This document shows positions 12,022-24,669 of a DNA stretch of 56,329 bases, one piece after another. The notes beneath the pieces were generated by a model. It saw nothing but the letters and a program-made list of their open reading frames with translations. It did no database searches and had not been told where the DNA came from. Source of the DNA: Armatimonadia bacterium (GTDB lineage: Bacteria; Armatimonadota; Zipacnadia; Zipacnadales; UBA11051); the NCBI GenBank assembly GCA_039683575.1, contig JBDKRC010000018.1, positions 1 to 56,329 of the forward strand. Direction: 5' to 3'. How positions within the stretch are numbered: the stretch's first letter is position 1; the number at the start of each line of letters is the position of its first letter. Position numbers and translations under genes: made by a program.

Positions 12022-15000
12022 GTGAGTAGTGACCTTTCAGGGCTTCCGAAGTTCCGCCGCCGTATCAGAAGCCGTGCCAGGGAGTGTGCCAAGTTGCTGA
12101 AACCAGCGCTGCTGACTCTGCCCCTGCCCTTGCTGCTGCTACTGGCCTCATCAGTCCTTGCGGCCGGCACCGCCGGCAAGCCTTCCCGGCCGTCGGTGCG
12201 CCCGTCCCCGCAGGGCCTCATCCTCGAGAATGCGACCTGCCGGTACGAAATCGGAGCCAATGGCCGCAACCTTAGCTTCGGCCCTCCGGGAGGCCGCAAC
12301 TACTGCGAGCCAGACAAGCCCGCTATGCTCGTCTCGGTCAATGGGAAGACGTCTGAGGCCACGCAGGTCTCTCTGTCTGGTGACACGGCTACCGTTCGGT
12401 TCGGTGAGGGCGGGCCTACCGCGAAAGTCCGGCTGCAGGCCATGCCGACGCATCTGGCGATGACAGTCACCGAGGTGCAGGGAGAAGGCGTGCAGTGGCT
12501 GCAGGTCTGCAACCTGCGGCTGCAGCTATCCGAGAGCGTCGGCACCCTTGTCAACGCGGCCTGGGATAGCAGCTACGGGGCCTGCGTCATGGCCTGCAAT
12601 GACCTAAGCGAGGCCTATGGCGCGGACCAGGCCCAAGCGGCGTTATGTGCCCGTTGCCACGCCGAATATGGGATGGTAGGCGCGCGCTTCGCCATCATTG
12701 GTGTACCTACTGGCAAAACGGACCCGGATGTGAAGGTGCTGGAAGCCATCGGCAAGATGGAGTTGGCCGAGGGCCTGCCCCATCCGCTGGTCAACGGTGT
12801 CTGGCTCAAGCAGTCGCCGGAGCGCTTCCGGTCGTATCTGATGGTGCATGATCTGTCGGAGGCGAACGTGGATCAGGTGGTGGAGGCGGCCAGGGGCGGC
12901 TTTGGCTGCATCGAGTTCTATCCCTGGCGCTCCACTCCCTCCTACCAGCTCAACCCCAAGGCCTTCCCACACGGTATGGACGGCCTGAAGGCCGTATGCG
13001 ACAAGATTCACGCGGCGGGGATGCAGGTGGGGCTGCATGCTATGCAGAGCATGGTTGGCTGGGGGCCAAAAGATGATCCAGCCATCTCGCCCAAGGCCGA
13101 TGCGCGGTTGCTCCAGGACAAACGGGGGACGCTGGGGGCCGCGCTGGACGAGAAGACTACCACTTTGGTGGTGCAAGAGGGCACGAAAGGCTGGCCGGAG
13201 CACGGCGTGCTTTTCGCCGAGGGCGAGCTCATCGGCTATGAAAAGCGCACCGACAGCGGCTTTGAGGGCGTGAAGCGCGGGTTGTATGGTACGACGATCA
13301 CCGCTCACCCCGCAGGCGCGAGCGTTGGCAACCTGGTCAACTGCTTCCCCATCTGGGGCAACACCGTCTTCTGCCCTGACCTGAAGACAAACATGGTGGA
13401 CGAGGTCTGCCAGCGGATCGCCGACCTTTTCAACGCCGTCGGCTGCGACATGTCATACTTCGACGCCGGTGAGGAACTGGCCAAGCAACCGCCGGCATGG
13501 CACAACCAGGGCGTTGTGGCCCTGGGCGTCACAAAGCGCCTGAACAAGCCAATAGTGCTCGAAGGCAACGCGCTCTATACCAACCTGTCGTGGCATGTCA
13601 TCACCCGCGGCAGCCCCCACTTTGACCCGATTTCCTTCGGGCGACGAGAGTACACCTTGCGGTTCAAAGGCATCAACCCCGCGGGCTGGCGCAAAAACCT
13701 CCTGACCGGCGACGTGGGTTGGTTCGCCCCCCATGGCTGGTCGCCGGCCACGGACGCGGTCACGCCCGATGAAGTGATGCTCCTGTGCCTCAAGGCCACG
13801 GGCGGCAAGGCGCCCATCTCCTTCAGCATCTCCGCCGCGGCGGTGAAGAACAATCCGCGGATGCCTGAGATGCTGGAGATCATCCGGGCCTGCGATGAAC
13901 TCAAGCGCACCGACTACTTCACTCCCGAGGCCCGCGCGGAGCTAACCCGCCCGCGCACTGAGTGGTCGCTCGAGCAGACGCCGCGGGGGGACTGGAACCT
14001 CCGGCCAATGCAGTTTGGGCCCCCGCAGGTGGTCAACGCCGCAGAGTCCGGCCAGGGCGGCTCGGAGTGCAACAACCCCTACCCGTCGCAGCAGCCCTTT
14101 GTCCGCCTACGCGCCCGCCCGAAGCTGGCAGCCTATGGCGACGCAGGCAACAAGGTGCTGGCTGACTTTGCCAAAGGTGAGCTGTTCAAGCCTGAAGCGA
14201 CGGCTTCCGCCGACCTGACGCAGTCGGTGGGCCTCTCCGGCGAGAAAGCCCCCGACGGCAGTCCGGCGTTGTGCTACCGTGTCGAGAACAAGGCGGCGCA
14301 GACCTCAAAGTGGACGAAGATCAGCTACCCTCTACCTGCGCAGGTTGACCTGAGCCAGCACCGGCGGCTGGGCCTGTGGCTCAAGGCCAACGGCTGCGGC
14401 GGCATAGCGAACCTGCAACTGGTCGGCAAGGACGCACGGCGCGACCACTACATACCGTTGAGCTTCAGCGACTGGCGGTACATTGAGCTGACTGTCCCCG
14501 AAGAGACTCGTTTCTGGGACTATTCATGGCCGTACCCCTGGACCGACCTCTTCTATACCTGCTGGTCCATCTACAACGCCACCAAACAACTGGACATATA
14601 CCTCAATGCGCTACCGGCCGGGGCGAAGGCCGAGTGCCTGATCGGGCGGATCGAGGCCCTCAAGGAGATCCCGGCGGCAGTCAAGTCGCCCACGCTGGAG
14701 GCCTCTGGTAGCAAAGTGGTGTTCCCGGTGTCCCTGCAGCCGGAGGAGTACCTGGAAATGGACTTCTACGGCCGCTGCCGGCAGTTTGACCGCAATGGCA
14801 AGGTGCTCGCCGACGTAACGCCACAGGGAGCACTCGAACTTGGCAGCGGGAACAACAAAGTGCTGTTCTCCTGCACTACTGAAGATGGTGGCTCAGCCCG
14901 TGCTGAGGTGACGCTGATGCTGCGCGGCGAGCCGTTGAAGAACGCGCATCGTGCGAAGGTGAAGACCGCGAAGTACGAGGGGCTCACTGCGCCGCAATAG
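12022..15000 (+). CDS. Secreted hypothetical protein, glycoside-hydrolase-like (beta/alpha)8 core with CBM-like domain
   Basis: Leu-rich signal. Motif FPHGMDGLKAVCDKIHAAGMQVGLH and YFDAGE resemble GH36/GH27-clan barrels. DLSQHRRLGLWLK is CBM11-like. The start codon is uncertain and may lie further downstream. Confidence 0.55.
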   Translation: MSSDLSGLPKFRRRIRSRARECAKLLKPALLTLPLPLLLLLASSVLAAGTAGKPSRPSVRPSPQGLILENATCRYEIGANGRNLSFGPPGGRNYCEPDKPAMLVSVNGKTSEATQVSLSGDTATVRFGEGGPTAKVRLQAMPTHLAMTVTEVQGEGVQWLQVCNLRLQLSESVGTLVNAAWDSSYGACVMACNDLSEAYGADQAQAALCARCHAEYGMVGARFAIIGVPTGKTDPDVKVLEAIGKMELAEGLPHPLVNGVWLKQSPERFRSYLMVHDLSEANVDQVVEAARGGFGCIEFYPWRSTPSYQLNPKAFPHGMDGLKAVCDKIHAAGMQVGLHAMQSMVGWGPKDDPAISPKADARLLQDKRGTLGAALDEKTTTLVVQEGTKGWPEHGVLFAEGELIGYEKRTDSGFEGVKRGLYGTTITAHPAGASVGNLVNCFPIWGNTVFCPDLKTNMVDEVCQRIADLFNAVGCDMSYFDAGEELAKQPPAWHNQGVVALGVTKRLNKPIVLEGNALYTNLSWHVITRGSPHFDPISFGRREYTLRFKGINPAGWRKNLLTGDVGWFAPHGWSPATDAVTPDEVMLLCLKATGGKAPISFSISAAAVKNNPRMPEMLEIIRACDELKRTDYFTPEARAELTRPRTEWSLEQTPRGDWNLRPMQFGPPQVVNAAESGQGGSECNNPYPSQQPFVRLRARPKLAAYGDAGNKVLADFAKGELFKPEATASADLTQSVGLSGEKAPDGSPALCYRVENKAAQTSKWTKISYPLPAQVDLSQHRRLGLWLKANGCGGIANLQLVGKDARRDHYIPLSFSDWRYIELTVPEETRFWDYSWPYPWTDLFYTCWSIYNATKQLDIYLNALPAGAKAECLIGRIEALKEIPAAVKSPTLEASGSKVVFPVSLQPEEYLEMDFYGRCRQFDRNGKVLADVTPQGALELGSGNNKVLFSCTTEDGGSARAEVTLMLRGEPLKNAHRAKVKTAKYEGLTAPQ

Positions 15001-15033
15001 CCCCCAAGCGCCATAGCAGTTGCTATACAGGGA

Positions 15034-16053
15034 ATGAGTACCATGCTTACATCCGCAGACGTGAAGGCTTTTGCTCGTAGTTGTGGCGCCGATCTGGTGG
15101 GAATTGGGGATCTCAGCCGCTTTGAGGGGGCGCCGCCGGAGATGGACGCGCGCCACCTCTTTCCCGACGCCAAGGCCATCGTCGGGCTGGCTTTCCGGAT
15201 TCCGCGCGGCTATCTGCGTGGGATCGAGGAAGGCACGAACTTCTACCAGTACCCTTCGATGGGCTATGCCAACATCAACGAGGTCTACGCGCCGAGTGTG
15301 CTGCACGAACTGTCGTGTTTCCTCGAAGATCACGGGTACGAGGGCGCAGCCTACCGCAACACCGGCGGACGCATGGCCTCGTCGGACATGACCGGCGACT
15401 ACGACGAGTCCCCGGACTATGGCCGGCGTATTCGCCACTCGGAGCCAGTCGCGCCAGGCCGGCCGGCGCCCGACGTGATGTTCAGCTTCCGCATCGCGGC
15501 CTTCATCTGCGGACTGGGGGAAATCGGGTACAGCAAGATGTTCCTGACGCCCGAGTTTGGCCCCCGCCAGCGCTTTGCCTTCCTGCTCACTGACGCGCCC
15601 CTGGAGCCCGACCCGCTCTTCGAGGGCGCCATCTGCGACCGGTGCCAGGCCTGTGTCCGCGATTGCCCAATCGGAGCGATCAGTGGGACGGAGACGGTGA
15701 AGATCACGGTGGCGGGGCGCGAACTGGAGTGGGGGCGGCTGGCGGAGTGGCAGTGCTTCCACGCCTACATGGGCAGCGTGAAGGAGATCAACCCCTTCCT
15801 GCCGCTGGATGCCTTCGCGGAACTACCCGACGGTGAGAAGATCCTGCGGGGTGAGAAGGCCCTGACGCCCGCGGAGGTCCTGCAGGTGCAGGCCATTCTG
15901 CGGCGGTACTACGGATCGGCGTGCGGCTACAACTCCGCGGTGTGCGGCGGACGTGGGTGCCTGCGCGCCTGCATGGTGCATCTTGAGCAACGCGGGACGC
16001 TGACCCGCGGCTTCGAGTCGCCCTTCCGCAAGCGCCCTCCATGGCGGCTTTGA
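15034..16053 (+). CDS. Epoxyqueuosine reductase (QueG)/reductive dehalogenase-like cobalamin and 4Fe-4S protein
   Basis: GADLVGIG, AAFICGLGEIG, LTPEFGPRQRF...LTDAPLEPD, ferredoxin motif CDRCQACVRDCP and C-terminal CGGRGCLRAC. No Tat signal. Confidence 0.75.
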   Translation: MSTMLTSADVKAFARSCGADLVGIGDLSRFEGAPPEMDARHLFPDAKAIVGLAFRIPRGYLRGIEEGTNFYQYPSMGYANINEVYAPSVLHELSCFLEDHGYEGAAYRNTGGRMASSDMTGDYDESPDYGRRIRHSEPVAPGRPAPDVMFSFRIAAFICGLGEIGYSKMFLTPEFGPRQRFAFLLTDAPLEPDPLFEGAICDRCQACVRDCPIGAISGTETVKITVAGRELEWGRLAEWQCFHAYMGSVKEINPFLPLDAFAELPDGEKILRGEKALTPAEVLQVQAILRRYYGSACGYNSAVCGGRGCLRACMVHLEQRGTLTRGFESPFRKRPPWRL

Positions 16054-16264
16054 GCAGGTAAGTCCCTCTCTGAACCCTCTGCTTTGCCTCGTCTCAGCCC
16101 CAGTGCCGACGCCTCCCGCGGCACCGCAGTCCCCTGCCGGCACCGTTATCGACACAAAACATAGGATGCGTCGCTCTCGTCAATCTGTTTGAGATGCTGG
16201 AGTATTCCAGGAGTGTTGTGTGTCGGGGCGTCCGGTCAATTATCTGCCGACTGGGGATTTCACA

Positions 16265-19200
16265 ATGAGGCCGCACAGTGACAGCGGGAGGGCGGCGGTC
16301 GTCTGGGCAGAGGGCAGTCAACTCCGGTCGACTGAGGCATGGTCAGGAACCGCTCCTGCCTCGTCCGCTCAAGAGCGCCTGTGGTTCATGAGCCGTTACC
16401 ATGGTGGCGGCCCGGCGTATACCACAGTCGCTGCTGTGCGCCTGAAGGGACCCCTGAATGTGGTGGCGCTGGAGGCGGCTCTGAACGCCCTGCGCAGGCG
16501 CCACGATATCCTCCGGACGTCCTTCTCCGACACCGGCGCCGGCCTGCTGCAGAGCATCGCCCCGGCGCTGGATCAGCCCCTGTCATTGACCGATCTGCAG
16601 TGCCTCCCACCCGAAGCGCGCGAGCCTCAGGCGTTGGAACTGGCAACGGTCCTCTCTGAACTTCGCTTTGACCTTGATTGTGGCCCACTCATGGCTACAG
16701 ACCTGTTGCGTCTGGACAATACGCACCACCTGCTACTGACTGCCTGCCACCACTCGATCTTTGACGGCCCCTCCTGCGACCTGATGATGCAGGAACTCGC
16801 CGAGGCCTACGAAGCTTTCGAGCTGGGCGAGGTTCCGGATTTCGAGCCGCTGCCAGTGCAATACCACGATCTTGCGGTCTGGGAGCGGGAGCAACTGCAT
16901 GGCTCACACTTTCAGAGACTGCTGGACTTCTGGCGGCAGGAGCTCGCTGGGACGCCCCCGCTGGGGTTGCCCACGGACTTCTCCCGCCCCTCGGTCCGTA
17001 GTATGACTGGAAGCGTCACCCGTCACTTGCTTCCCTATAGGCTGGCCGACGCGCTGGATGAATTCTCCCGCAGCCACAATATGCCCCTGTTCGCAGTCCT
17101 GATGAGCGGTCTGCAGGTGTTGCTCCACCGCTACACCGGCCAGGACGACCTTGCCGTGGGCTTCCCCGTTGACATTCGAACGTGCCCGGAGTTCGAGAGG
17201 CTGATCGGCCCGTGCACCAATAGCCTGGTGCTTCGCGCCAGCCTGGATGGGAACCCAAGCTTTGCGGAGTTGCTGAACCGTCAGCAGCAGCGCCTGCTGG
17301 AAGTCTACGCCCACCAGAACATGCCATTCGCGCGGCTGGTCGACGAACTTGATCAACGTCACGATCCAGCCCGGTCGCCGCTGTTCGACGTGTCCCTGCA
17401 GTTGCGCCATGTGCCGTGCTCGCTCGAAAGGGGAGGACTAGAGTGGCAGCCAGTGGCAGTCGAGACGCTCGGCGCGCAGGTTGACCTGGCACTCGACATG
17501 ACCCAGACGGGGGACGGGCTGGCCATAGGTTGCCGATACAATGCGGGTCTCTTCACCGAGGACACGGTCTCGCGCCTGCTCGGCCACTACGAGAACCTCC
17601 TGGGAGACCTTGTCCAAAGCCCGCACAAGCGAGTGTCGGAGTTGGCGCTCCTGAGTGAGACCGAGTGCCGGCAGATACTCGTCGAGTGGAACGAGACCGC
17701 GCACCAATACCCTTCAGAGCAGTGCATCCACGAGCTCTTCATGGTTCGGGCACGCGAGAAGCCAGACGCGCTTGCGGCGGCGTACCGGACGCAGGCGCTG
17801 ACCTACGGGCAACTGGACGAGATCACTGACAAGCTTGCGGCCCACCTCGCGAGCCTCGGCGCCGGTCCGGGCCGGGCCGTCGGCATGTATACCACACCGG
17901 GGCTGGACATCCCTATTGCGTTCATGGGCGTGCTCAAAACTGGTGCCGCTTGCTTGCCGCTCGACCCCGCGCATCCCATGGAACGCGTGAGCTTTATGAT
18001 CGAGGACAGCGAGGCTGCGCTGGTGGTCGCCTCGTCTCGACTGGCAGAGACGCTGCAGGTAAGGCCCGGCGTGCGCGTAGTGCCCCTGGACCCTGTACTG
18101 TGGAAGCCCCCACAGACAGCGGAGCCATGCCCCGCTACACCAGACGACATCGCTTACATCACCTACACCTCCGGCTCGACCGGTAAGCCCAAAGGGGTCG
18201 CTGTGCGGCACCGCGGCATGGTCTCCCTGATGGCGCGGGGACATGATGTCCACTCGCCCGAGGTCCTGTCAGGCACTCTCCTTGCTACCTCGACCTCTTT
18301 TGACGCCGGAGTTGGCTCGGTCTTCATGGCACTCACGGGCGGGGGCTGCCTGATCCTGATAGACAACATCCTCGATCCGCACCTCTCCCTGCCGGTGCCA
18401 GTGACGCTGCTGGACGCCGTCCCGTCTGTCGTGTCGCAACTGGTGAGGCAGGGCACGCTCCCCGACACGGTGCACACGGTGGTCCTGAGCGGCGAGCCCG
18501 CTCCCGGCCCGCTGGTACGACGCCTGTATGAGAACCATGGGGTCAAGCGCGTCTTCAACGAGTACGGTCCGACAGAGACTACCCTGACGAGCACGGTGGC
18601 GCTCATCCCGCCTGACGCGGAAGAGCACCCGCCCATCGGGCGTCCCGTCTGGAATACGCGCGTGTATGTTCTGGACGAGTATCGCAACCCGGTACCAGTT
18701 GGCGTGTATGGCGAGCTGTATATCGCGGGTGTCGGAGTGGCCGCAGGCTATGTCAACGCTCCCGATCTGACCGAGCAGCGTTTCCTTCCGGATCCATTTG
18801 ACGCTGACGGAGGCGGGCGCATGTACCGCACGGGGGACCTCGTGCGGTACGATGCCGGCGGCAACCTGCACTTCCTGGGCCGCGCTGACAGTCAGGTCAA
18901 GATTCGCGGCTGTCGCATCGAACTTGGAGAAGTGGAGCGCGTGCTGTTGGAACACCCGGCGGTGCAGCGTGCTGTAGTCAGGGCGGTACCCGACGCCGCT
19001 GGCGGCCAGGCCCTTGCGGCCCATGTCATGCTCTGGCCGCGAGCCACTTTGACGCGAGAGCGCCTGAGGGAGCATCTTAAGGGACACTTGCCCGAGGTCA
19101 TGATCCCAACGCTGGTCACCTTCCTCGACAGCCTGCCCCTGCTGCCCTGCGGCAAGATAGACATAGATGCTCTGCCCGCTCCGCTAGCGGTGCCCCCCGT

Positions 19201-20266
19201 GGTTTCCGCTGGCGAGAAGACCCCTGAGCCCCTTGAAGCCCAGTTGCAGCGCCTGTGGGCTGAGGCCCTGGGAACAGAGCAGGTAGGGCTCGACGACAGC
19301 TTCTTTGACCTGGGCGGCCATTCGCTCACAGCGGCACGCCTGCTGGCAAGCATTCGCGAAGCGGTCGGGGGCAATCCACCGCTGCCCCTTCTCTTTCGTG
19401 CACCGACGGTCAGGCAGTTCGCTCGGGCGATCCTGGCCGGCGAGACGCTCGCCGCCGGCGATTGCCTCGTCCCCGTACAGCCCCAGGGCGACCGCCCACC
19501 CCTCTTCGCCGCCCACCACGAGACCGGTGAAGCCTTCTGCTATGTGCGGCTCAGCAAGTACCTGCCACCAGATCAGCCACTATATGGCCTGCGCGCCGAG
19601 GAAGAGCGTCTCTCGCCTTGTGACCTGACGCTGGCTGACCTGGCGGCTGACTACGTCGCGGCGATACGACAGCGTCAGCCTGTCGGGCCGTATTACCTCC
19701 TGGGCTACTCCCAGGCCGCGATGCTCGCCTGGGAACTCGCCCGGCAGTTGCGTGACCAGGGGCAGGAGATAGGCCTGCTGGCACTTATCGACTATCCGGC
19801 GGACTATGATGACTACATGCCCCCGTGTGGGCTGCCCCGGCTGCGTGACCCATGGCAGTTGCTGCGCGACCTCCCATTCACCTGGGCCTACGACTGGCGC
19901 CTGACGTGGGGTGAGCGGCGAGCGGAATGGGTCAATCGTCTGCGCCAACTGAGCGCCGCCTGTGGCTGCGGCACCTTCGATCCGCAACCAGATATCGTCG
20001 CCGATCCCATACGGCGCGGGCGGCTCGATAGCATGCTGCGAGCCTACCGGCCAGAACCATACGATGGTGACGTGGTCCTGTTTCGGGCGCGTCAACAGTG
20101 TCTATTCTGCTCCCATGACCGGGCGATGGGATGGCGCAGACTCGTGCAGGGCCGCCTGGACACTGTCAGCATTCCCGGCATCCATGCCCGCATGATGCAT
20201 GATCCGGCGGTAGAGAGCATAGCGAAACACCTGTCAAAGCGGCTGCAGGAGCCGCGGTTCCAATAG
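16265..20266 (+). CDS. Single-module non-ribosomal peptide synthetase (C-A-T-TE)
   Basis: C domain SSAQERLWF and HHSIFDG. A domain YTSGSTGKPKG, YGPTE, YRTGDL, GRADSQVKIRG and GKID. Carrier FFDLGGHSL. TE GYSQA and IPGIH. Alternative GTG start at 16220. Confidence 0.95.
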   Translation: MRPHSDSGRAAVVWAEGSQLRSTEAWSGTAPASSAQERLWFMSRYHGGGPAYTTVAAVRLKGPLNVVALEAALNALRRRHDILRTSFSDTGAGLLQSIAPALDQPLSLTDLQCLPPEAREPQALELATVLSELRFDLDCGPLMATDLLRLDNTHHLLLTACHHSIFDGPSCDLMMQELAEAYEAFELGEVPDFEPLPVQYHDLAVWEREQLHGSHFQRLLDFWRQELAGTPPLGLPTDFSRPSVRSMTGSVTRHLLPYRLADALDEFSRSHNMPLFAVLMSGLQVLLHRYTGQDDLAVGFPVDIRTCPEFERLIGPCTNSLVLRASLDGNPSFAELLNRQQQRLLEVYAHQNMPFARLVDELDQRHDPARSPLFDVSLQLRHVPCSLERGGLEWQPVAVETLGAQVDLALDMTQTGDGLAIGCRYNAGLFTEDTVSRLLGHYENLLGDLVQSPHKRVSELALLSETECRQILVEWNETAHQYPSEQCIHELFMVRAREKPDALAAAYRTQALTYGQLDEITDKLAAHLASLGAGPGRAVGMYTTPGLDIPIAFMGVLKTGAACLPLDPAHPMERVSFMIEDSEAALVVASSRLAETLQVRPGVRVVPLDPVLWKPPQTAEPCPATPDDIAYITYTSGSTGKPKGVAVRHRGMVSLMARGHDVHSPEVLSGTLLATSTSFDAGVGSVFMALTGGGCLILIDNILDPHLSLPVPVTLLDAVPSVVSQLVRQGTLPDTVHTVVLSGEPAPGPLVRRLYENHGVKRVFNEYGPTETTLTSTVALIPPDAEEHPPIGRPVWNTRVYVLDEYRNPVPVGVYGELYIAGVGVAAGYVNAPDLTEQRFLPDPFDADGGGRMYRTGDLVRYDAGGNLHFLGRADSQVKIRGCRIELGEVERVLLEHPAVQRAVVRAVPDAAGGQALAAHVMLWPRATLTRERLREHLKGHLPEVMIPTLVTFLDSLPLLPCGKIDIDALPAPLAVPPVVSAGEKTPEPLEAQLQRLWAEALGTEQVGLDDSFFDLGGHSLTAARLLASIREAVGGNPPLPLLFRAPTVRQFARAILAGETLAAGDCLVPVQPQGDRPPLFAAHHETGEAFCYVRLSKYLPPDQPLYGLRAEEERLSPCDLTLADLAADYVAAIRQRQPVGPYYLLGYSQAAMLAWELARQLRDQGQEIGLLALIDYPADYDDYMPPCGLPRLRDPWQLLRDLPFTWAYDWRLTWGERRAEWVNRLRQLSAACGCGTFDPQPDIVADPIRRGRLDSMLRAYRPEPYDGDVVLFRARQQCLFCSHDRAMGWRRLVQGRLDTVSIPGIHARMMHDPAVESIAKHLSKRLQEPRFQ

Positions 20267-20332
20267 GGGATGATCCGGCCGCTGACCCACACAGTGGGGA
20301 GGCGGAGCCTGACCGAGGGAGAGGAAGTAGTA

Positions 20333-21481
20333 ATGGTGGATATATTCGACAGACGACGGCTGGCTCACGTTACCGCCTTGCATCTGTACAAGGAGACACA
20401 GAACGCGGCTTTGCTGGTGCAGGCCTCTTGTACGGAGGCGGCCTGCTCGCAGATCCGTGAGTTCTACCTGGACGGTGGGTGCTGCGAACGCGTGATCATC
20501 TACCTGCACTCGCCCGGCTGCCGGTGGGCGGCGCAGAGCGACGGCGGGTGCTACATGTGCGGCCACTGGGCCGGGACCAAGCAGGGACAGACCATTCCCA
20601 GCAGCCTCATCGTCGAACAGGTTCACAGTGAGCTGGCGAAGTACGACTGGGCCAAGTACCCCGTCTTGTGTGTCTACAACGCCGGCAGCTTCACCTGCGA
20701 TCGTGAGATCACCCCGCAGGCCCGCCGCGAGATACTCCAGGCGATTGGGGCTGTGCCGGAGTTGAAGCTGCTCATCGTCGAGAGCCGTCCCGAGTTCATC
20801 ACGCCGCCGATGGCAGAGCAGTTCGCGTCCCTCGTCCCCTTCCATGTCCAGGTCGGCGTGGGCCTGGAGAGCGCCTCGGATCGCGTCCGCAGGCTCTGCA
20901 TCAACAAGGGCTTTGAGCGCGAGGACTTTGAGTTGGCCATCGCTACGTTGAACCAGGCCGGGGTCGGCTCCCTGGCTTACGTGCTGCTCAAGCCGCCTTT
21001 CCTGACCGAGATCGAAGCTATCGAGGACGCTGTGGACAGCATCCGCTATGCCTTCGAGGTCGGGGTAGAGGCCGTATCACTCGAACCGGTCTCCGTCCAG
21101 CCCCATACTCTTATCGAGCGTCTTCATGACGCGGGGGTGTACAGAGTCCCATGGACATGGTCAGTGCGTGAGGTCATCCGCGCCACGGCGCACCTGGGCG
21201 ACGTTCGCATCGGCGGTTTCGAGTACCATCCGGCACCCTACACCATCGTCCACAACTGTCCCGACTGCGACGAAGCCGCCTACAATGCCATCGCTCACTA
21301 CAATGCGACCAAGGACCTTGGGCCGCTCAATGCACTGGACTGCAGTTGTATCGGCGCCTGGGAGGCAGAGTGCGGGCTGTCGACCGAGCCCCTCGAGCAG
21401 CGGATCATCTCAGATTGCCTGGCCGTGCATGATGCATCCCGGCAATCCCACTGGGGAGTGACAGTGCCATGCGTCTCGTGA
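20333..21481 (+). CDS. Radical SAM protein of the TIGR01210/RaSEA (archaeosine-synthesis, Elp3-like) family
   Basis: GCRW....GGCYMCG (CX9CX2C), YNAGSF, VESRPEFI, VGLES...CINKGF, AYVLLKPPFLTE.EAIEDAV.SI, TLIERL...G.YR.PW.WSV and C-terminal HNC..CD...DC.C...W. These motifs match the RaSEA family. RBS GAGGGAGAGG before the ATG at 20333. Confidence 0.85.
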   Translation: MVDIFDRRRLAHVTALHLYKETQNAALLVQASCTEAACSQIREFYLDGGCCERVIIYLHSPGCRWAAQSDGGCYMCGHWAGTKQGQTIPSSLIVEQVHSELAKYDWAKYPVLCVYNAGSFTCDREITPQARREILQAIGAVPELKLLIVESRPEFITPPMAEQFASLVPFHVQVGVGLESASDRVRRLCINKGFEREDFELAIATLNQAGVGSLAYVLLKPPFLTEIEAIEDAVDSIRYAFEVGVEAVSLEPVSVQPHTLIERLHDAGVYRVPWTWSVREVIRATAHLGDVRIGGFEYHPAPYTIVHNCPDCDEAAYNAIAHYNATKDLGPLNALDCSCIGAWEAECGLSTEPLEQRIISDCLAVHDASRQSHWGVTVPCVS

Positions 21482-22188
21482 TCGCGCCGGAGATCGCTGC
21501 GGCCTATCCTGATCTGCGGATTGGAGTACTGGTGGGAACAGGGGCTGCCAACGACGGTGGGGCCGATGCCGCGGCTTTGGAGACGCTCAAGGCCGAGGCA
21601 GCCCAACACGCGCGGGCTCAGGGCTACACGACCGAGATGCTGTCCGAGCATCCCTTCATGTCTGCGTGGCGTGAAACCTACCGGAGTTTCGGAACCAAGC
21701 CCGGCAAATACCGCCCTACTGCCGAAGCGCTCGTGCGCCGCGTGCTCCAGGGAGACGGCATTCCGAGCATCTCGCCGTTGGTCGATGCATACCTGGCGGT
21801 CGAGGCGCGCTGGTGGCTTCCGGTCGGAGGGTATGACCTCGATCTGGTGAAGGGGGACGTAGTGCTGCGGTTCTCGGGCGGGGGAGAGGCCTTTCGGGGC
21901 ATAGGCGCCGACGAGGATGAATATACGGACCAGGGGGAAGTGATCTACTGTGACGATGAACGCGTCCTGACCCGGCGCTGGAACTACAAGGACGCCGACG
22001 CGACAAAAGTCACGCCCCAGAGCGTCAACGTCGTGCTGTGCGTCGAGGCCCCGACGGCGGCGATCCCTTCCGAAGCGGTGGCAGGATGCGTGGAAGCGAT
22101 GGCGGAGGGGCTAGAGGCCGTCTGCCACGGGAACTGGCGCACGATGATCTGCGATGCCACTGCCCCTGCGGTTCCGTTGACGGAGTAG
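21469..22188 (+). CDS. Standalone B3/4 (PheRS beta-type) tRNA-editing domain protein
   Basis: AWRETYRSFGTKPGKYRPTAEALVRR, ISPLVDAY, PVGGYDLD, GEVIYCDD...LTRRWNYK. Overlaps the radical SAM gene by 13 nt. Confidence 0.9.
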   Translation: MRLVIAPEIAAAYPDLRIGVLVGTGAANDGGADAAALETLKAEAAQHARAQGYTTEMLSEHPFMSAWRETYRSFGTKPGKYRPTAEALVRRVLQGDGIPSISPLVDAYLAVEARWWLPVGGYDLDLVKGDVVLRFSGGGEAFRGIGADEDEYTDQGEVIYCDDERVLTRRWNYKDADATKVTPQSVNVVLCVEAPTAAIPSEAVAGCVEAMAEGLEAVCHGNWRTMICDATAPAVPLTE

Positions 22189-22221: not shown

Positions 22222-23886
22222 TTAGTGGCCGTTGCCGCCGTCTGCGTGGCGGATCTGCACCCGGCGGATCTTGCCGCTGATGGTCTTGGGCAGTTCGTCC
22301 ACGAACTCAACTACACGCGGGTACTTGTAGGGCGCCGTCACACGCTTGACGTGGTCCTGCAGTTCCTTTACCAGGGCGTCCGAGGCAGTGTAGCCCTTAG
22401 CCAGGATCACGGTCGCTTTCACGATCTGGCCCCGCACTGGATCCGGAGCGCCGGTGATTGCACACTCAATCACCGCTGGATGCTCCACGAGGGCGCTCTC
22501 CACTTCGAAGGGGCCGATACGGTAGCCGGAACTCTTGATCAAGTCATCGGCCCGGCCAACGAACCAGTAGTAGCCATCCTCATCACGCCAGGCCATGTCT
22601 CCGGTGTGGTAGATACCGTCATGCCACGCCCGTTTGGTCAAGTCTTCATCGCGATAGTAGCCCGCGAACATTCCCGGTGGGCGCGTGTCGCCGGTGCGGA
22701 TCACGATCTCGCCCTCAACGCCGACTTCGCAGGACTCGCCGTTGTCGTCCAGCAGGTCAACAGCGTACCCGGGAGTGGGCTTACCCATCGAGCCGGGACG
22801 TGGCTCAAGCCAGGGATACGTCGCGAGCGCCACGATCATCTCCGTCTGCCCATAGCCTTCCATGATCTTCATGTTGGTGCCAGCGAGGAAGTTGTCGAAA
22901 ACCTCCGGGTTCAGCGGCTCGCCGGCGACCACGCAGTACTCCAGGCCTGACAGATCGTATTTTGACACGTCTTCCTTGATCAGGAAGCGGTAGATGGTGG
23001 GCGGGGCGCAGAAGGTCTTCACCTTGTAGTCCTGGATCACCCGCAGCAGGTCTGCCGGCACGAACTTCTCATAGTCATACACGAAGACCTGGGCACCGCA
23101 AATCCACTGACCGTACATTTTGCCCCAGACGGCCTTTGCCCAGCCGGTGTCGGCGACCGTCAGATGCAGACCGTCTTTCCGAACGTTCTGCCAGTACGCT
23201 GCCGTCAGGATGTGCCCCAGCGGGTATGTGAAGTCGTGCTGCACCATCTTGGGCATCCCGGTCGTGCCCGAGGTGAAGTAGATCAGCATCATGTCTTCGT
23301 TCTGGGAAGCCTCATCGCCGGAAGGGCGTTCGAACTCCGCCGGCGCCTCGCTCAGGCCTTGCGCAAAGTCCAGCCAGCCCTCACGATGTCCGTCAACGAT
23401 CGCCTTGAGCTGCAGAGTCGGCGATTCCTCTTGCGCCTCGTCTACGTGGTGCAGCACCCACTCGTCATCGATGGTGATGATCATCTTGATGTCGGCGGAG
23501 TTGCAGCGGTAGACGATATCATGGGTGCTCAGCAGGTGGGTCGCAGGGACGGCCACCGCCCCGAGCTTGTGCAGGCCCAGCAGACAGAACCAGAACTGGT
23601 AGCGGCGCTTGAGGATCAGCATCACGCGGTCGCCACGCCCGATGCCGAGCGAGCGCAGGTAGTTGGCGGCCTTGTCGCTGTAGAGCTTCATCTCGCCGAA
23701 GGTGAAGCTGGCGCTGTCACCGGCCTCGTCGCACCAGACCAGCGCCACCTTGTCAGGATCGGTGGCGGCAATCTCGTCTACAACGTCAAAGGCGAAGTTG
23801 AAGTTCTCGGGGACGTCTATCCGGAAATCCCGCGTGAACTCTTCATAGGAAGCAAAAGATGTTTGCGGCAGAAAGCGATCGAGCAT
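22222..23886 (-). CDS. Acyl-CoA synthetase (acetate/medium-chain acid-CoA ligase, AMP-forming)
   Basis: [69 protein letters not shown] before the ATG at 23886. Confidence 0.92.
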
Positions 23887-23953
23887 CTGCAAAGACTCCT
23901 CATGTATCTGGGGCTCTGGCCCCCGATACGATAGCACTTCTGGGGGGACTATT

Positions 23954-24505
23954 TCAAAGGATAATGGCCAGGAACTGCGCCCGAGTGCCCCCGAGAGCGA
24001 TCATACCATGTTTCAGGCTTGAATCGAAATACAGCGAATCCCCGGCGTTCAGGATCAGTTCGTGGCCATCCAGAACGAGCTTGAGCGTGCCCTCGAGAAC
24101 ATAGTTGAACTCCTGCCCCGGATGCGAGTTGAGATGTATCTCCTCGTCGGGGTGCGGCTCGACAGTCACCAGGAACGGTTCTGCTTTCTTGTGGCTGAAG
24201 TTGTAGGCCAAGCTCTGGTAAGCATACTCCTGGCGCCGCTCGACCGCCACGCCCTTGCGCTGGCGAACCAGACAGTACGAGTGCAGCCGCGGCTCCTCTC
24301 CGGTCAGAAGGGCGGTGAGTTCCACACCAAAGCGGCCAGCTATCTGGTACAGCACGCTGACAGGGATATCACTGTTGCCGCTCTCATAGGCGGCGTACGT
24401 CTCAAGCGGGATACCGACATCCGCCGCGACCTGCTCCTGGGTTACGCCAGCGATATCGCGCAGGTCCTGAACGCGAGCGGCAATCTCTTTGAGTTGATCG
24501 GACAT
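23954..24505 (-). CDS. XRE-family HTH plus cupin transcriptional regulator
   Basis: N-terminal HTH ([23 protein letters not shown]) and cupin [12 protein letters not shown]...[10 protein letters not shown]. Commonly paired with the adjacent ligase. Confidence 0.9.
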
Positions 24506-24669
24506 CGCATATACACCCTTGCCATCGGACGACGATGGTCATGATTGCGGGGCACAAGATGCACATTTCGACACGGGGGACAGAATCGCCTTCTAGGGGT
24601 CAACACGTCTGCGCAGCACAAGGTCCGCCTGGCCGCTACTTGCTGTAGCTTTGGCTGCCATGGGCTACG

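Follow-up and report, generated by a model that had tools for sequence, protein, structure and literature searches.

A recurrent radical SAM-B3/4 gene pair behind a nonribosomal peptide synthetase gene in an Armatimonadia genome: a candidate guard of translation against an arginine-like analogue

The subject of this work is a 56,329-nucleotide contig of an Armatimonadia bacterium (JBDKRC010000018.1, assembly GCA_039683575.1), which we call the window at its full length. Three genes on one strand of it encode a nonribosomal peptide synthetase (NRPS), a radical S-adenosylmethionine (SAM) enzyme of the TIGR01210 (RaSEA) family and a standalone B3/4 protein of the CtdA family (Table 1). An initial annotation, made from the sequence alone, had described them as co-oriented, linked genes that end at a convergent gene, and the open reading frame (ORF) scan and the translations agree. 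A 66-nt gap follows the NRPS gene, the start of the B3/4 gene overlaps the stop of the radical SAM gene by 13 nt, and the B3/4 stop lies 33 nt from a convergent gene for an acyl-CoA synthetase-like protein. The gap is counted to the radical SAM ATG at 20333, which is preceded by a purine-rich GGAGAGGAAG-type ribosome site. A simple scan of the + strand between the three genes found no terminator-like site. The protein families had also been named correctly: all five Pfam domains of the NRPS (Condensation, AMP-binding, AMP-binding_C, PP-binding and Thioesterase) score far above their cut-offs, the radical SAM protein reaches 231.7 bits on TIGR01210 (curated NCBIfam cut-off 212.15), and the B3/4 protein reaches 80.9 bits on PF03483 (cut-off 29.3). 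The closest named homologues come from an Armatimonadia metagenome-assembled genome (MAG).

Table 1. Positions of the NRPS, radical SAM and B3/4 genes, the NRPS domains and two neighbouring genes in the window. C, condensation; A, adenylation; T, thiolation; TE, thioesterase; HTH, helix-turn-helix.
Feature	Position	Strand	Basis
NRPS, C-A-T-TE, 1333 aa	ATG 16265 (longest ORF from GTG 16220)..20266	+	Pfam domains
NRPS C domain	16346-17680	+	Pfam Condensation
NRPS A domain	17747-18751 plus 18929-19156	+	Pfam AMP-binding, AMP-binding_C
NRPS T domain	19241-19432	+	Pfam PP-binding
NRPS TE domain	19499-19804, conserved C-terminal extension behind TE	+	Pfam Thioesterase
Radical SAM enzyme, TIGR01210 (RaSEA) family, bacterial B3/4-linked group, 382 aa	20333..21481 (alternative ATG 20270)	+	NCBIfam
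Standalone B3/4 protein, CtdA family, pocket L109-G120-Y122-T168-D175 ('LGYTD'), 239 aa	21469..22188	+	PF03483
Convergent acyl-CoA synthetase-like gene (MbcS-like)	22222..23937	-	Pfam AMP-binding; NF047394 486 bits vs cut-off 850
HTH + cupin regulator-like gene	23954..24505	-	Pfam HTH_19/HTH_3 + Cupin_2

Does this arrangement recur elsewhere? We collected 160 other loci, 80 from genomes and 80 from metagenomes, that were retrieved by the radical SAM protein family alone. A B3/4 gene adjoins the radical SAM gene in 26 of them, almost always directly 3' of it; for 14 of the pair loci the spacing between the two genes runs from -26 to +55 nt. At 90% identity the pair loci form 21 clusters (22 with the window added), and their sources are Lachnospiraceae, other Clostridia, Pseudomonadota, Desulfobacterales, Planctomycetota and metagenomes. 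The B3/4 label changes 8 times on the tree of radical SAM proteins, against a mean of 23.2 for shuffled labels, and none of 500 shuffles gave a count as low. We conclude that the adjacency of the radical SAM and B3/4 genes is not due to chance. An NRPS or adenylating-family gene stands no more than three genes away in 23 of 160 labelled rows, the window included (locus L135, with a split radical SAM frame, was left out of these rows). None of the 160 other loci holds NRPS, radical SAM and B3/4 genes together, and the window alone carries both labels. The proposed three-gene cluster is thus not conserved in these loci; it is the pair of radical SAM and B3/4 genes that recurs. Most pairs have no NRPS gene at all, and loci with the pair only are common. 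Because many pairs stand among unrelated genes (DNA methylase, protease, AFOR), the pair looks self-sufficient. Most pair loci hold neither another biosynthetic gene nor an exporter.

The pair also looks horizontally acquired: in a sample of 201 genomes of the phylum the radical SAM gene was found in two (the window genome and one with a weak match of 32%), as against 23 genomes with NRPS homologues. In a reverse check, a standalone B3/4 protein was found in 13 of 301 genomes of one Clostridia order. Among these 13, the radical SAM gene lay within the 1.5-kb flanks only in the genome whose B3/4 protein has the L-Y-T-D pattern of pocket residues described below; the pattern was unmatched in the other 12 B3/4 proteins, save for a single letter in one of them. 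Our literature search found no paper mentioning 'TIGR01210', and nothing relevant linking RaSEA, radical SAM and biosynthetic gene clusters.

Some pair loci have features of their own. A Desulfobacterales MAG has its B3/4 gene beside a radical SAM gene, split over two frames (L039 / L172, L175; G204:C49:296909-297600); the split B3/4 of L039 covers profile positions 1-71 and 72-231, which reflects a frameshift or an assembly error. A thioredoxin-like protein of ~90 aa (WCPAC) and a protein of ~590 aa are often encoded 3' of the pair (L007:12379-14501, L011, L014, L088, L092/L093, L097). The larger partner has a prenyltransferase-type alpha/alpha toroid in Pfam; for the 593-aa member the ESM Atlas indicates an N-terminal prenyltransferase-like toroid and a C-terminal CHAT/caspase-like domain, as leads only, with scores <0.9. 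PADLOC matched neither the three window proteins (NRPS, radical SAM enzyme and B3/4 protein) nor the two recurrent partners.

The best sequence matches of the B3/4 protein in the Protein Data Bank are two CtdA structures, 9f7e from P. canavaninivorans (E 3.1e-26) and 9mkl from S. enterica (E 6.9e-19). Its AlphaFold model (pLDDT 96) matches 9f7e_A in Foldseek with E 1.4e-20, TMq 0.85 and rmsd 2.4 over 231 columns, and 9mkl with TMq 0.83, and it superposes on both CtdA structures over the whole chain. In the predicted structure, it is a standalone protein with the B3/B4 fold and the helical insert specific to CtdA. Like CtdA, it is encoded beside an enzyme that acts on a small molecule; the partner of CtdA is a pyridoxal phosphate (PLP)-dependent canavanine-gamma-lyase, whereas the partner in the window is a radical SAM enzyme.

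The pocket sets the two proteins apart. In the main text of PMC12449066 the CtdA pocket is made up of N105, G116, E118, C166, Q173 and I189 (S. enterica numbering); the N105A, G116H/W and Q173G variants are inactive, and C166 tunes specificity. The window protein has L109, G120, Y122, T168, D175 and C191 at these positions and keeps only the Gly. The L, G, Y, T and D residues are present in all 16 aligned B3/4 homologues encoded downstream of a radical SAM gene. Across 121 sequences, which comprise the window protein and the best 120 of 262 database matches, the LGYTD pocket occurs in 104, N-G-F-T-D in 15 and other types in 2. To judge from these sequences, the LGYTD pocket is not drift. Because five of the six pocket positions differ from CtdA, including the Asn whose Ala mutant is inactive, we only infer that the window protein is a deacylase.

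Natural fusions point to the tRNAs involved. The fusion search was confined to longer proteins and gave 8 matches. One, P0244 (849 aa), joins a B3/4 domain with an L-G-Y-T-D-F pocket (residues 1-227) to an arginyl-tRNA synthetase (ArgRS; residues 300-849; TIGR00456 420 bits vs 261.65). In five proteins an N-terminal B3/4 domain with an N-G-[DE]-[CT]-E-V pocket is fused to a class II lysyl-tRNA synthetase (LysRS), and in another protein the B3/4 domain stands C-terminally on a class I LysRS; the fusion clusters among P0244-P0250 thus number 1 for ArgRS, 5 for class II LysRS and 1 for class I LysRS. A 468-aa protein has an N-terminal B3/4 domain with an N-G-Y-C-D-F pocket and no NCBIfam match. 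An editing-type domain fused to a synthetase is the classic cis-editing architecture. The fusions to ArgRS and LysRS appear to tie the B3/4 family to two basic-amino-acid tRNA systems, and the LGYTD pocket type would be tied to arginine, a link to tRNA(Arg) that the window protein would share with CtdA. A scan of viral contigs with the B3/4 alignment found no relative. Of what the initial annotation said about this protein, the relation to CtdA is borne out both by sequence and by fold, and the link to basic amino acids is strengthened by the ArgRS and LysRS fusions. Its proposal that the protein clears mischarged tRNA gains from the homology to CtdA and from the same fusions, but is weakened by a pocket that differs at five of six positions.

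Two Clostridia loci (L023:8818-11488, L049:9086-11472) show another arrangement: the B3/4 protein has the canonical pocket residues of CtdA type (N, E, C, E), its gene is divergent from a RaSEA-like radical SAM gene, and a gene for a 140-aa EamA-type membrane protein lies 3' of the latter. This is a candidate anaerobic canavanine-handling module; at Rfam gathering thresholds it contained no guanidine riboswitch.

The second-best NCBIfam match of the window radical SAM enzyme is TIGR01212, the model of MnmL. The window enzyme has the Cx9Cx2C cysteines and, towards its C-terminus, four more cysteines, none of which varies among relatives. In a FastTree tree of 132 rows, for which 13 of 41 archaeal ArcS-type rows were kept and 28 thinned out, the archaeal ArcS-linked proteins form a clade of 27 rows and the NRPS-linked proteins one of 33 rows, each with support 100. 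The window protein lies outside both, in a loose bacterial group of 54 rows (support 87) that holds all 25 B3/4-linked rows. A long branch (1.29) leaves the exact position of the window protein in the tree uncertain.

Perhaps the enzyme has a genuine deazapurine function of the RaSEA or QueL type, with archaeosine-like or queuosine-salvage chemistry on bases or nucleic acids? It scores above the curated TIGR01210 cut-off, and its closest named homologue is annotated 'archaeosine biosynthesis radical SAM protein RaSEA'. RaSEA cleaves lysine from preQ0-Lys to yield archaeosine, and works only in complex with a tRNA-binding partner, ArcS (PMC11298593). The window resembles the ArcS-RaSEA system of Thermococcus kodakarensis in its match to the TIGR01210 model, in the Cx9Cx2C motif and in the tight pairing with a protein of a tRNA-related family. 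However, its host is bacterial, its partner is a B3/4 protein instead of a TGT/PUA protein, and the archaeal ArcS-linked enzymes keep to a well-supported clade of their own. One ArcS-like query, the protein of archaeal locus L034 (NF040592 398 bits, below the 440 cut-off), found no ArcS in the 96.4%-complete window genome, an empty answer that is weak by itself. No queuosine- or deazapurine-pathway gene stood out among the recurring neighbour families, most of which were not scanned against Pfam. A deazapurine function therefore seems very improbable. With no ArcS found in the genome by this one query, the database name 'archaeosine biosynthesis protein RaSEA' does not apply, and we rejected that identity on this ground together with the B3/4 neighbour and the position outside the archaeal clade.

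The partnership of RaSEA with a tRNA-binding protein raises another possibility, tRNA-templated chemistry. A B3/4 protein that lacks the catalytic Asn might clamp arginyl- or analogue-tRNA(Arg) while the radical SAM enzyme remodels the esterified amino acid; what results would either be handed over to the NRPS or be released, and the pair would be a bacterial functional analogue of ArcS-RaSEA built from a synthetase editing domain. The replacement of Asn by Leu in most homologues and the inactivity of CtdA N105A (PMC12449066) would fit such a role, as would the dependence of RaSEA on its partner (PMC11298593), the gene overlap, which suggests translational coupling, and the synthetase genes or fusions nearby. 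However, the pocket Asn is not universally needed, since the PheRS editing mutant N254A keeps almost full activity (PMC12449066). The same pocket type is also found fused to ArgRS in a cis-editing architecture, and no radical SAM-B3/4 fusion occurs among the 8 longer homologues. We consider the clamp improbable, and the onward passage of a tRNA-templated product equally so. A complex prediction for the radical SAM and B3/4 proteins (score 0.00, run without controls) has no bearing either way.

What reaction might the radical SAM enzyme catalyze? We take QueL to belong to the TIGR01210 family. QueL (queuine lyase) converts queuine to preQ1 (PMC12632869), and MnmL of B. subtilis takes the place that the FAD-dependent cmnm5(s2)U 'deacetylase' MnmC(o) has in mnm5U synthesis of Escherichia coli (PMC12632869; PMC11130926). 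All characterised relatives of the window enzyme are C-N-cleaving, N-substituent-removing or salvage enzymes. Removal of an N-substituent is also the chemistry we would expect in the window; the substrates of QueL and MnmL differ from it in being a deazapurine base and a tRNA nucleoside. In a sister clade the radical SAM gene stands, in 8 loci, beside a gene for an aldehyde dehydrogenase that passes the AstD equivalog model (602.5 vs 579.3 bits), which fits an aldehyde product on an arginine/ornithine skeleton. At L094:507-3176 a single 889-aa protein carries both a class I/II aminotransferase and a TIGR01210-type radical SAM domain; the latter scores 208 bits, slightly less than the cut-off. 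This fusion connects the family with amino-acid chemistry.

Other contexts of the radical SAM family were recorded. A B12 radical SAM gene lies 3' of the aminotransferase-radical SAM fusion gene of L094. A third conserved module with the radical SAM gene (L040, L041, L055, L081, L126, L137, L141, L146, and L035, L043) encodes a 283-aa unknown protein, the AstD (succinylglutamate-semialdehyde dehydrogenase) equivalog, the radical SAM enzyme and a 414-434-aa protein without a Pfam or NCBIfam match. Members of the NRPS-linked radical SAM clade (L012, L015-L018, L021, L025, L104, L105, L111, L113) are embedded in NRPS or hybrid clusters. In 10 of these loci an A-T protein nearby has one unusual hand-read code, DPQN[IV][LM]I[IV]N, and in 9 of the 10 the A domain with this code is encoded directly 3' of the radical SAM gene. 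This suggests that the clade may serve a dedicated building block.

The NRPS domains are intact: the motifs HHxxxDG (C), GGHS (T) and GYSQA (TE, similar to GxSxG) are all present, as are the A core motifs. The domain order is that of EntF-type C-A-T-TE proteins, and EntF and MxcG are among the best full-length NCBIfam alignments, far below their cut-offs. The C domain is nearest to solved elongation C domains (Txo1/Txo2, TycC) and is matched weakly by the CDA starter C domain; as an elongation-type domain it expects a carrier-bound donor. No A-T (loading) gene or phosphopantetheinyl transferase (PPTase) gene lies in the window neighbourhood. The sole other C-domain protein of the genome is on contig C277, where an A-T protein (588 aa), a C-A-T-TE protein (1337 aa) and an Sfp-type PPTase (267 aa) are encoded head to tail on the minus strand at ~35.7-42.2 kb (L192:7681-14220). 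The two C-A-T-TE proteins share 53% identity over 1327 residues, and the best match of the window NRPS elsewhere in the phylum sample is 40%. The window NRPS is hence a lineage-specific duplicate, and the C277 set is its likely source. Unlike EntF-type proteins and the C277 paralogue, it has no adjacent loading module, aryl carrier or PPTase, and the radical SAM-B3/4 pair stands behind it. The A-T protein of C277 is the only candidate donor module found in the genome. The 'minimal NRPS' of the initial annotation is, on these data, not self-contained.

The adenylation pockets of the two paralogues have diverged. The codes, read by hand from motif positions, are DAGDVLELT in the window and DVWDVLQVV in C277; they differ at 5 of 9 positions, and the changes include Trp to Gly at the pocket floor and Gln to Glu. 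We take this to mean that the A domain may have been re-specified toward a longer, possibly cationic side chain. LgrA, the top structure match of the NRPS (537 bits), was discarded as a clue to the substrate; its score simply adds up two unremarkable A-domain alignments (259 + 278 bits).

Two metatranscriptome libraries (X1, X2), from one sample of one study, contain RNA contigs identical to the window that span most of the NRPS, radical SAM and B3/4 genes. The junction of the radical SAM and B3/4 genes is spanned by one of these contigs, the NRPS stop by two. Cover was little or none at 15000-16200, at 23667-24600 and in the NRPS part 18210-18530, which is no evidence of silence. The RNA contigs are compatible with expression of the three genes as a unit, although a contig that spans two genes need not stem from one transcript. 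The radical SAM-B3/4 module is probably co-transcribed with the NRPS gene.

These results bear on a reading in which the NRPS is only an accidental neighbour. The pair would be a module of its own that detoxifies or catabolises an analogue from the environment, and the NRPS, a duplicated terminal module, would work with the C277 system. The counts in the phylum sample, 2 and 23 of 201 genomes, suggest separate histories for the radical SAM gene and the NRPS; pair-only loci are common, and CtdA itself is associated with a degradation operon (PMC10018355). On the other hand, the 66-nt gap holds a ribosome site only and no terminator-like site was found in it, RNA-library contigs run across the NRPS stop, and the NRPS code has changed relative to its paralogue, as expected if the enzyme was recruited for a new substrate. 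We consider a fortuitous adjacency rather improbable. A functional link between the pair and the NRPS is, on balance, what we expect.

We tentatively favour the reading that the pair guards translation from an arginine-like analogue, as a lyase and a tRNA(Arg) editor, and that it is here joined to an NRPS. The core would be a mobile two-gene module of a RaSEA-family radical SAM enzyme and a CtdA-type B3/4 protein, a guard in two layers against an arginine-like non-canonical amino acid. Mischarged tRNA(Arg) would be freed of the analogue by the B3/4 protein. The free analogue would be the target of the radical SAM enzyme, acting as a radical C-N (or C-heteroatom) lyase that cuts beside the guanidino/amidino group to give a carbonyl fragment and a guanidine-type fragment. 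In the window the module would follow, 66 nt behind, a duplicated terminal NRPS module with a re-specified adenylation pocket, which would receive its donor from elsewhere, the sole other A-T protein found being on contig C277. The operon's product would be a small peptide with the same amino acid in it, and self-protection would be the role of the module. The identity of the amino acid, the deacylase activity and the direction of the radical SAM reaction (destroying or making the analogue) are presumed in this scheme. An arginine-like amino acid is proposed on three grounds: the relation to CtdA together with the ArgRS fusion, a family chemistry that cleaves C-N bonds of N-alkyl-amidine-type substrates, and the AstD-type neighbour of the sister clade. 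No riboswitch names the amino acid, as the whole window and 7 pair loci gave no match at Rfam gathering thresholds, including none to a T-box or a guanidine riboswitch. Protection is preferred because the pair is self-sufficient in many unrelated contexts and all known radical SAM relatives cleave.

Could the radical SAM enzyme be biosynthetic instead? It would then make or remodel a basic non-canonical amino acid loaded by the NRPS, with the B3/4 protein as the producer's self-resistance deacylase. AlaX-family deacylases are an established marker of such clusters: in PMC13149037 (Millar et al., Nat Chem 2026), AlaX-type tRNA deacylases mark non-canonical-amino-acid biosynthetic clusters that have NRPS and radical SAM neighbours. 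The window resembles the BesG (fluorothreonine deacylase)-type clusters described there in having a standalone deacylase-type gene in a small cluster with an NRPS and a radical SAM enzyme, and its B3/4 gene likewise stands beside biosynthetic-type enzymes, directly 3' of the radical SAM and NRPS genes. It differs from them in deacylase family, in pocket and in radical SAM partner, the family mined in that paper being AlaX. A biosynthetic role would also suit the pair of L008-L010, which lies among biosynthetic-type enzymes with an extra tryptophanyl-tRNA synthetase (TrpRS), the PaaK-like ligase and ATP-grasp protein beside the pair of L091, the aminotransferase fusion of L094, the sister radical SAM clade, which in 10 loci directly adjoins an A-T protein of one conserved code, and the 66-nt gap, which has no room for a promoter of the pair's own. 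However, the characterised relatives all cleave, unmask or salvage and none build; most pair loci lack any other biosynthetic gene or exporter; the window enzyme lies outside the NRPS-linked clade (support 100); and an aldehyde, the expected product of a C-N lyase on arginine or lysine, is no obvious ArgRS substrate. We rate this alternative as somewhat unlikely. Characterised CtdA genes adjoin canavanine degradation operons and not biosynthetic ones (PMC10018355), and, with the cleaving and salvage relatives of the radical SAM enzyme, this makes protection or catabolism no less likely than biosynthesis as the role of that enzyme. The biosynthetic pathway first proposed for the locus thus keeps its protein families, its relation to CtdA and its ties to basic-amino-acid tRNAs, but its NRPS is not self-contained and its trio is absent from the 160 other loci. 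That tRNA deacylases can serve as markers of non-canonical-amino-acid clusters, a point in its favour, has been published for the AlaX family (PMC13149037).

Several findings weigh against a guard for arginine-like analogues. The arginine assignment comes from one fusion protein (one cluster, one member) and from analogy. The pocket Asn essential in CtdA (N105A inactive; PMC12449066) is Leu in 104 of the 121 homologues, and a B3/4 protein with this exchange might not hydrolyse at all. Asp at position 278 of the hand-read codes is weak evidence for a basic substrate, since the C277 paralogue has it too. A separate radical SAM clade is tied to the supply of NRPS building blocks through the conserved A-domain code in 10 loci. 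The surroundings of the pair in L008-L010 are of biosynthetic type, with genes for a methyltransferase, a B12 radical SAM enzyme, a PLP enzyme and a PaaK-like ligase, and the gene 3' of it encodes an extra TrpRS (TIGR00233, 276 bits vs 176.75), not ArgRS; a biosynthetic reading and an aromatic substrate fit this context as well, which makes the substrate class tentative. Finally, with the trio found in no other genome, the link to the NRPS is drawn from operon structure only.

In full, the Clostridia cluster (L008:4275-13691, and the same in L009 and L010) encodes a 543-aa unknown protein, an Ala_racemase_N-type PLP enzyme, a PaaK-like ligase, an ApyD-like B12 radical SAM enzyme, the RaSEA-like radical SAM enzyme, a SAM methyltransferase, a B3/4 protein of the LGYTD type and, 14 nt downstream, the extra TrpRS. 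A cluster of this type is present twice in one genome.

That a tRNA-editing gene can guard a cluster is already known. The radical SAM-B3/4 pair, its invariant pocket, the synthetase fusions and an NRPS-linked instance are not mentioned in the main texts of three CtdA papers or of PMC13149037, whose supplements may list the pocket type or the pairing; CtdA and B3/4 have 0 occurrences in the main text of PMC13149037, and no mention of CtdA-type domain fusions to ArgRS or LysRS was found in the main text of two of the CtdA papers. If the guard reading is right, bacterial 'RaSEA' annotations would hide radical lyases that act on amino-acid-type substrates, possibly cleaving guanidino/amidino amino acids and releasing guanidine-type products under anoxic conditions. 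In the CtdA family a second class of specificity would emerge, a large one in which at least 104 distinct 90%-identity clusters share one invariant pocket, and this LGYTD class would represent a new trans-editing activity for tRNA(Arg). In addition, CtdA-type domains would be naturally attached to ArgRS and LysRS in the manner of cis-editing domains. The deacylase-guided search for non-canonical-amino-acid pathways could then be extended from AlaX to B3/4, and the NRPS-linked case in the window would be a direct test.

The adjacency of the acyl-CoA synthetase-like gene to the radical SAM-B3/4 pair is not kept at other loci; this gene and the HTH-cupin gene may be parts of the unit, as candidates only. 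Just 5' of the NRPS gene, a gene at 15034-16053 (+) encodes a 339-aa protein with weak matches to reductive dehalogenase and QueG Fe-S-region models (44 and 24 bits), far below the cut-offs, and the 992-aa gene product before it has no family match. The window neighbours otherwise encode large glycosidase-like or unassigned proteins.

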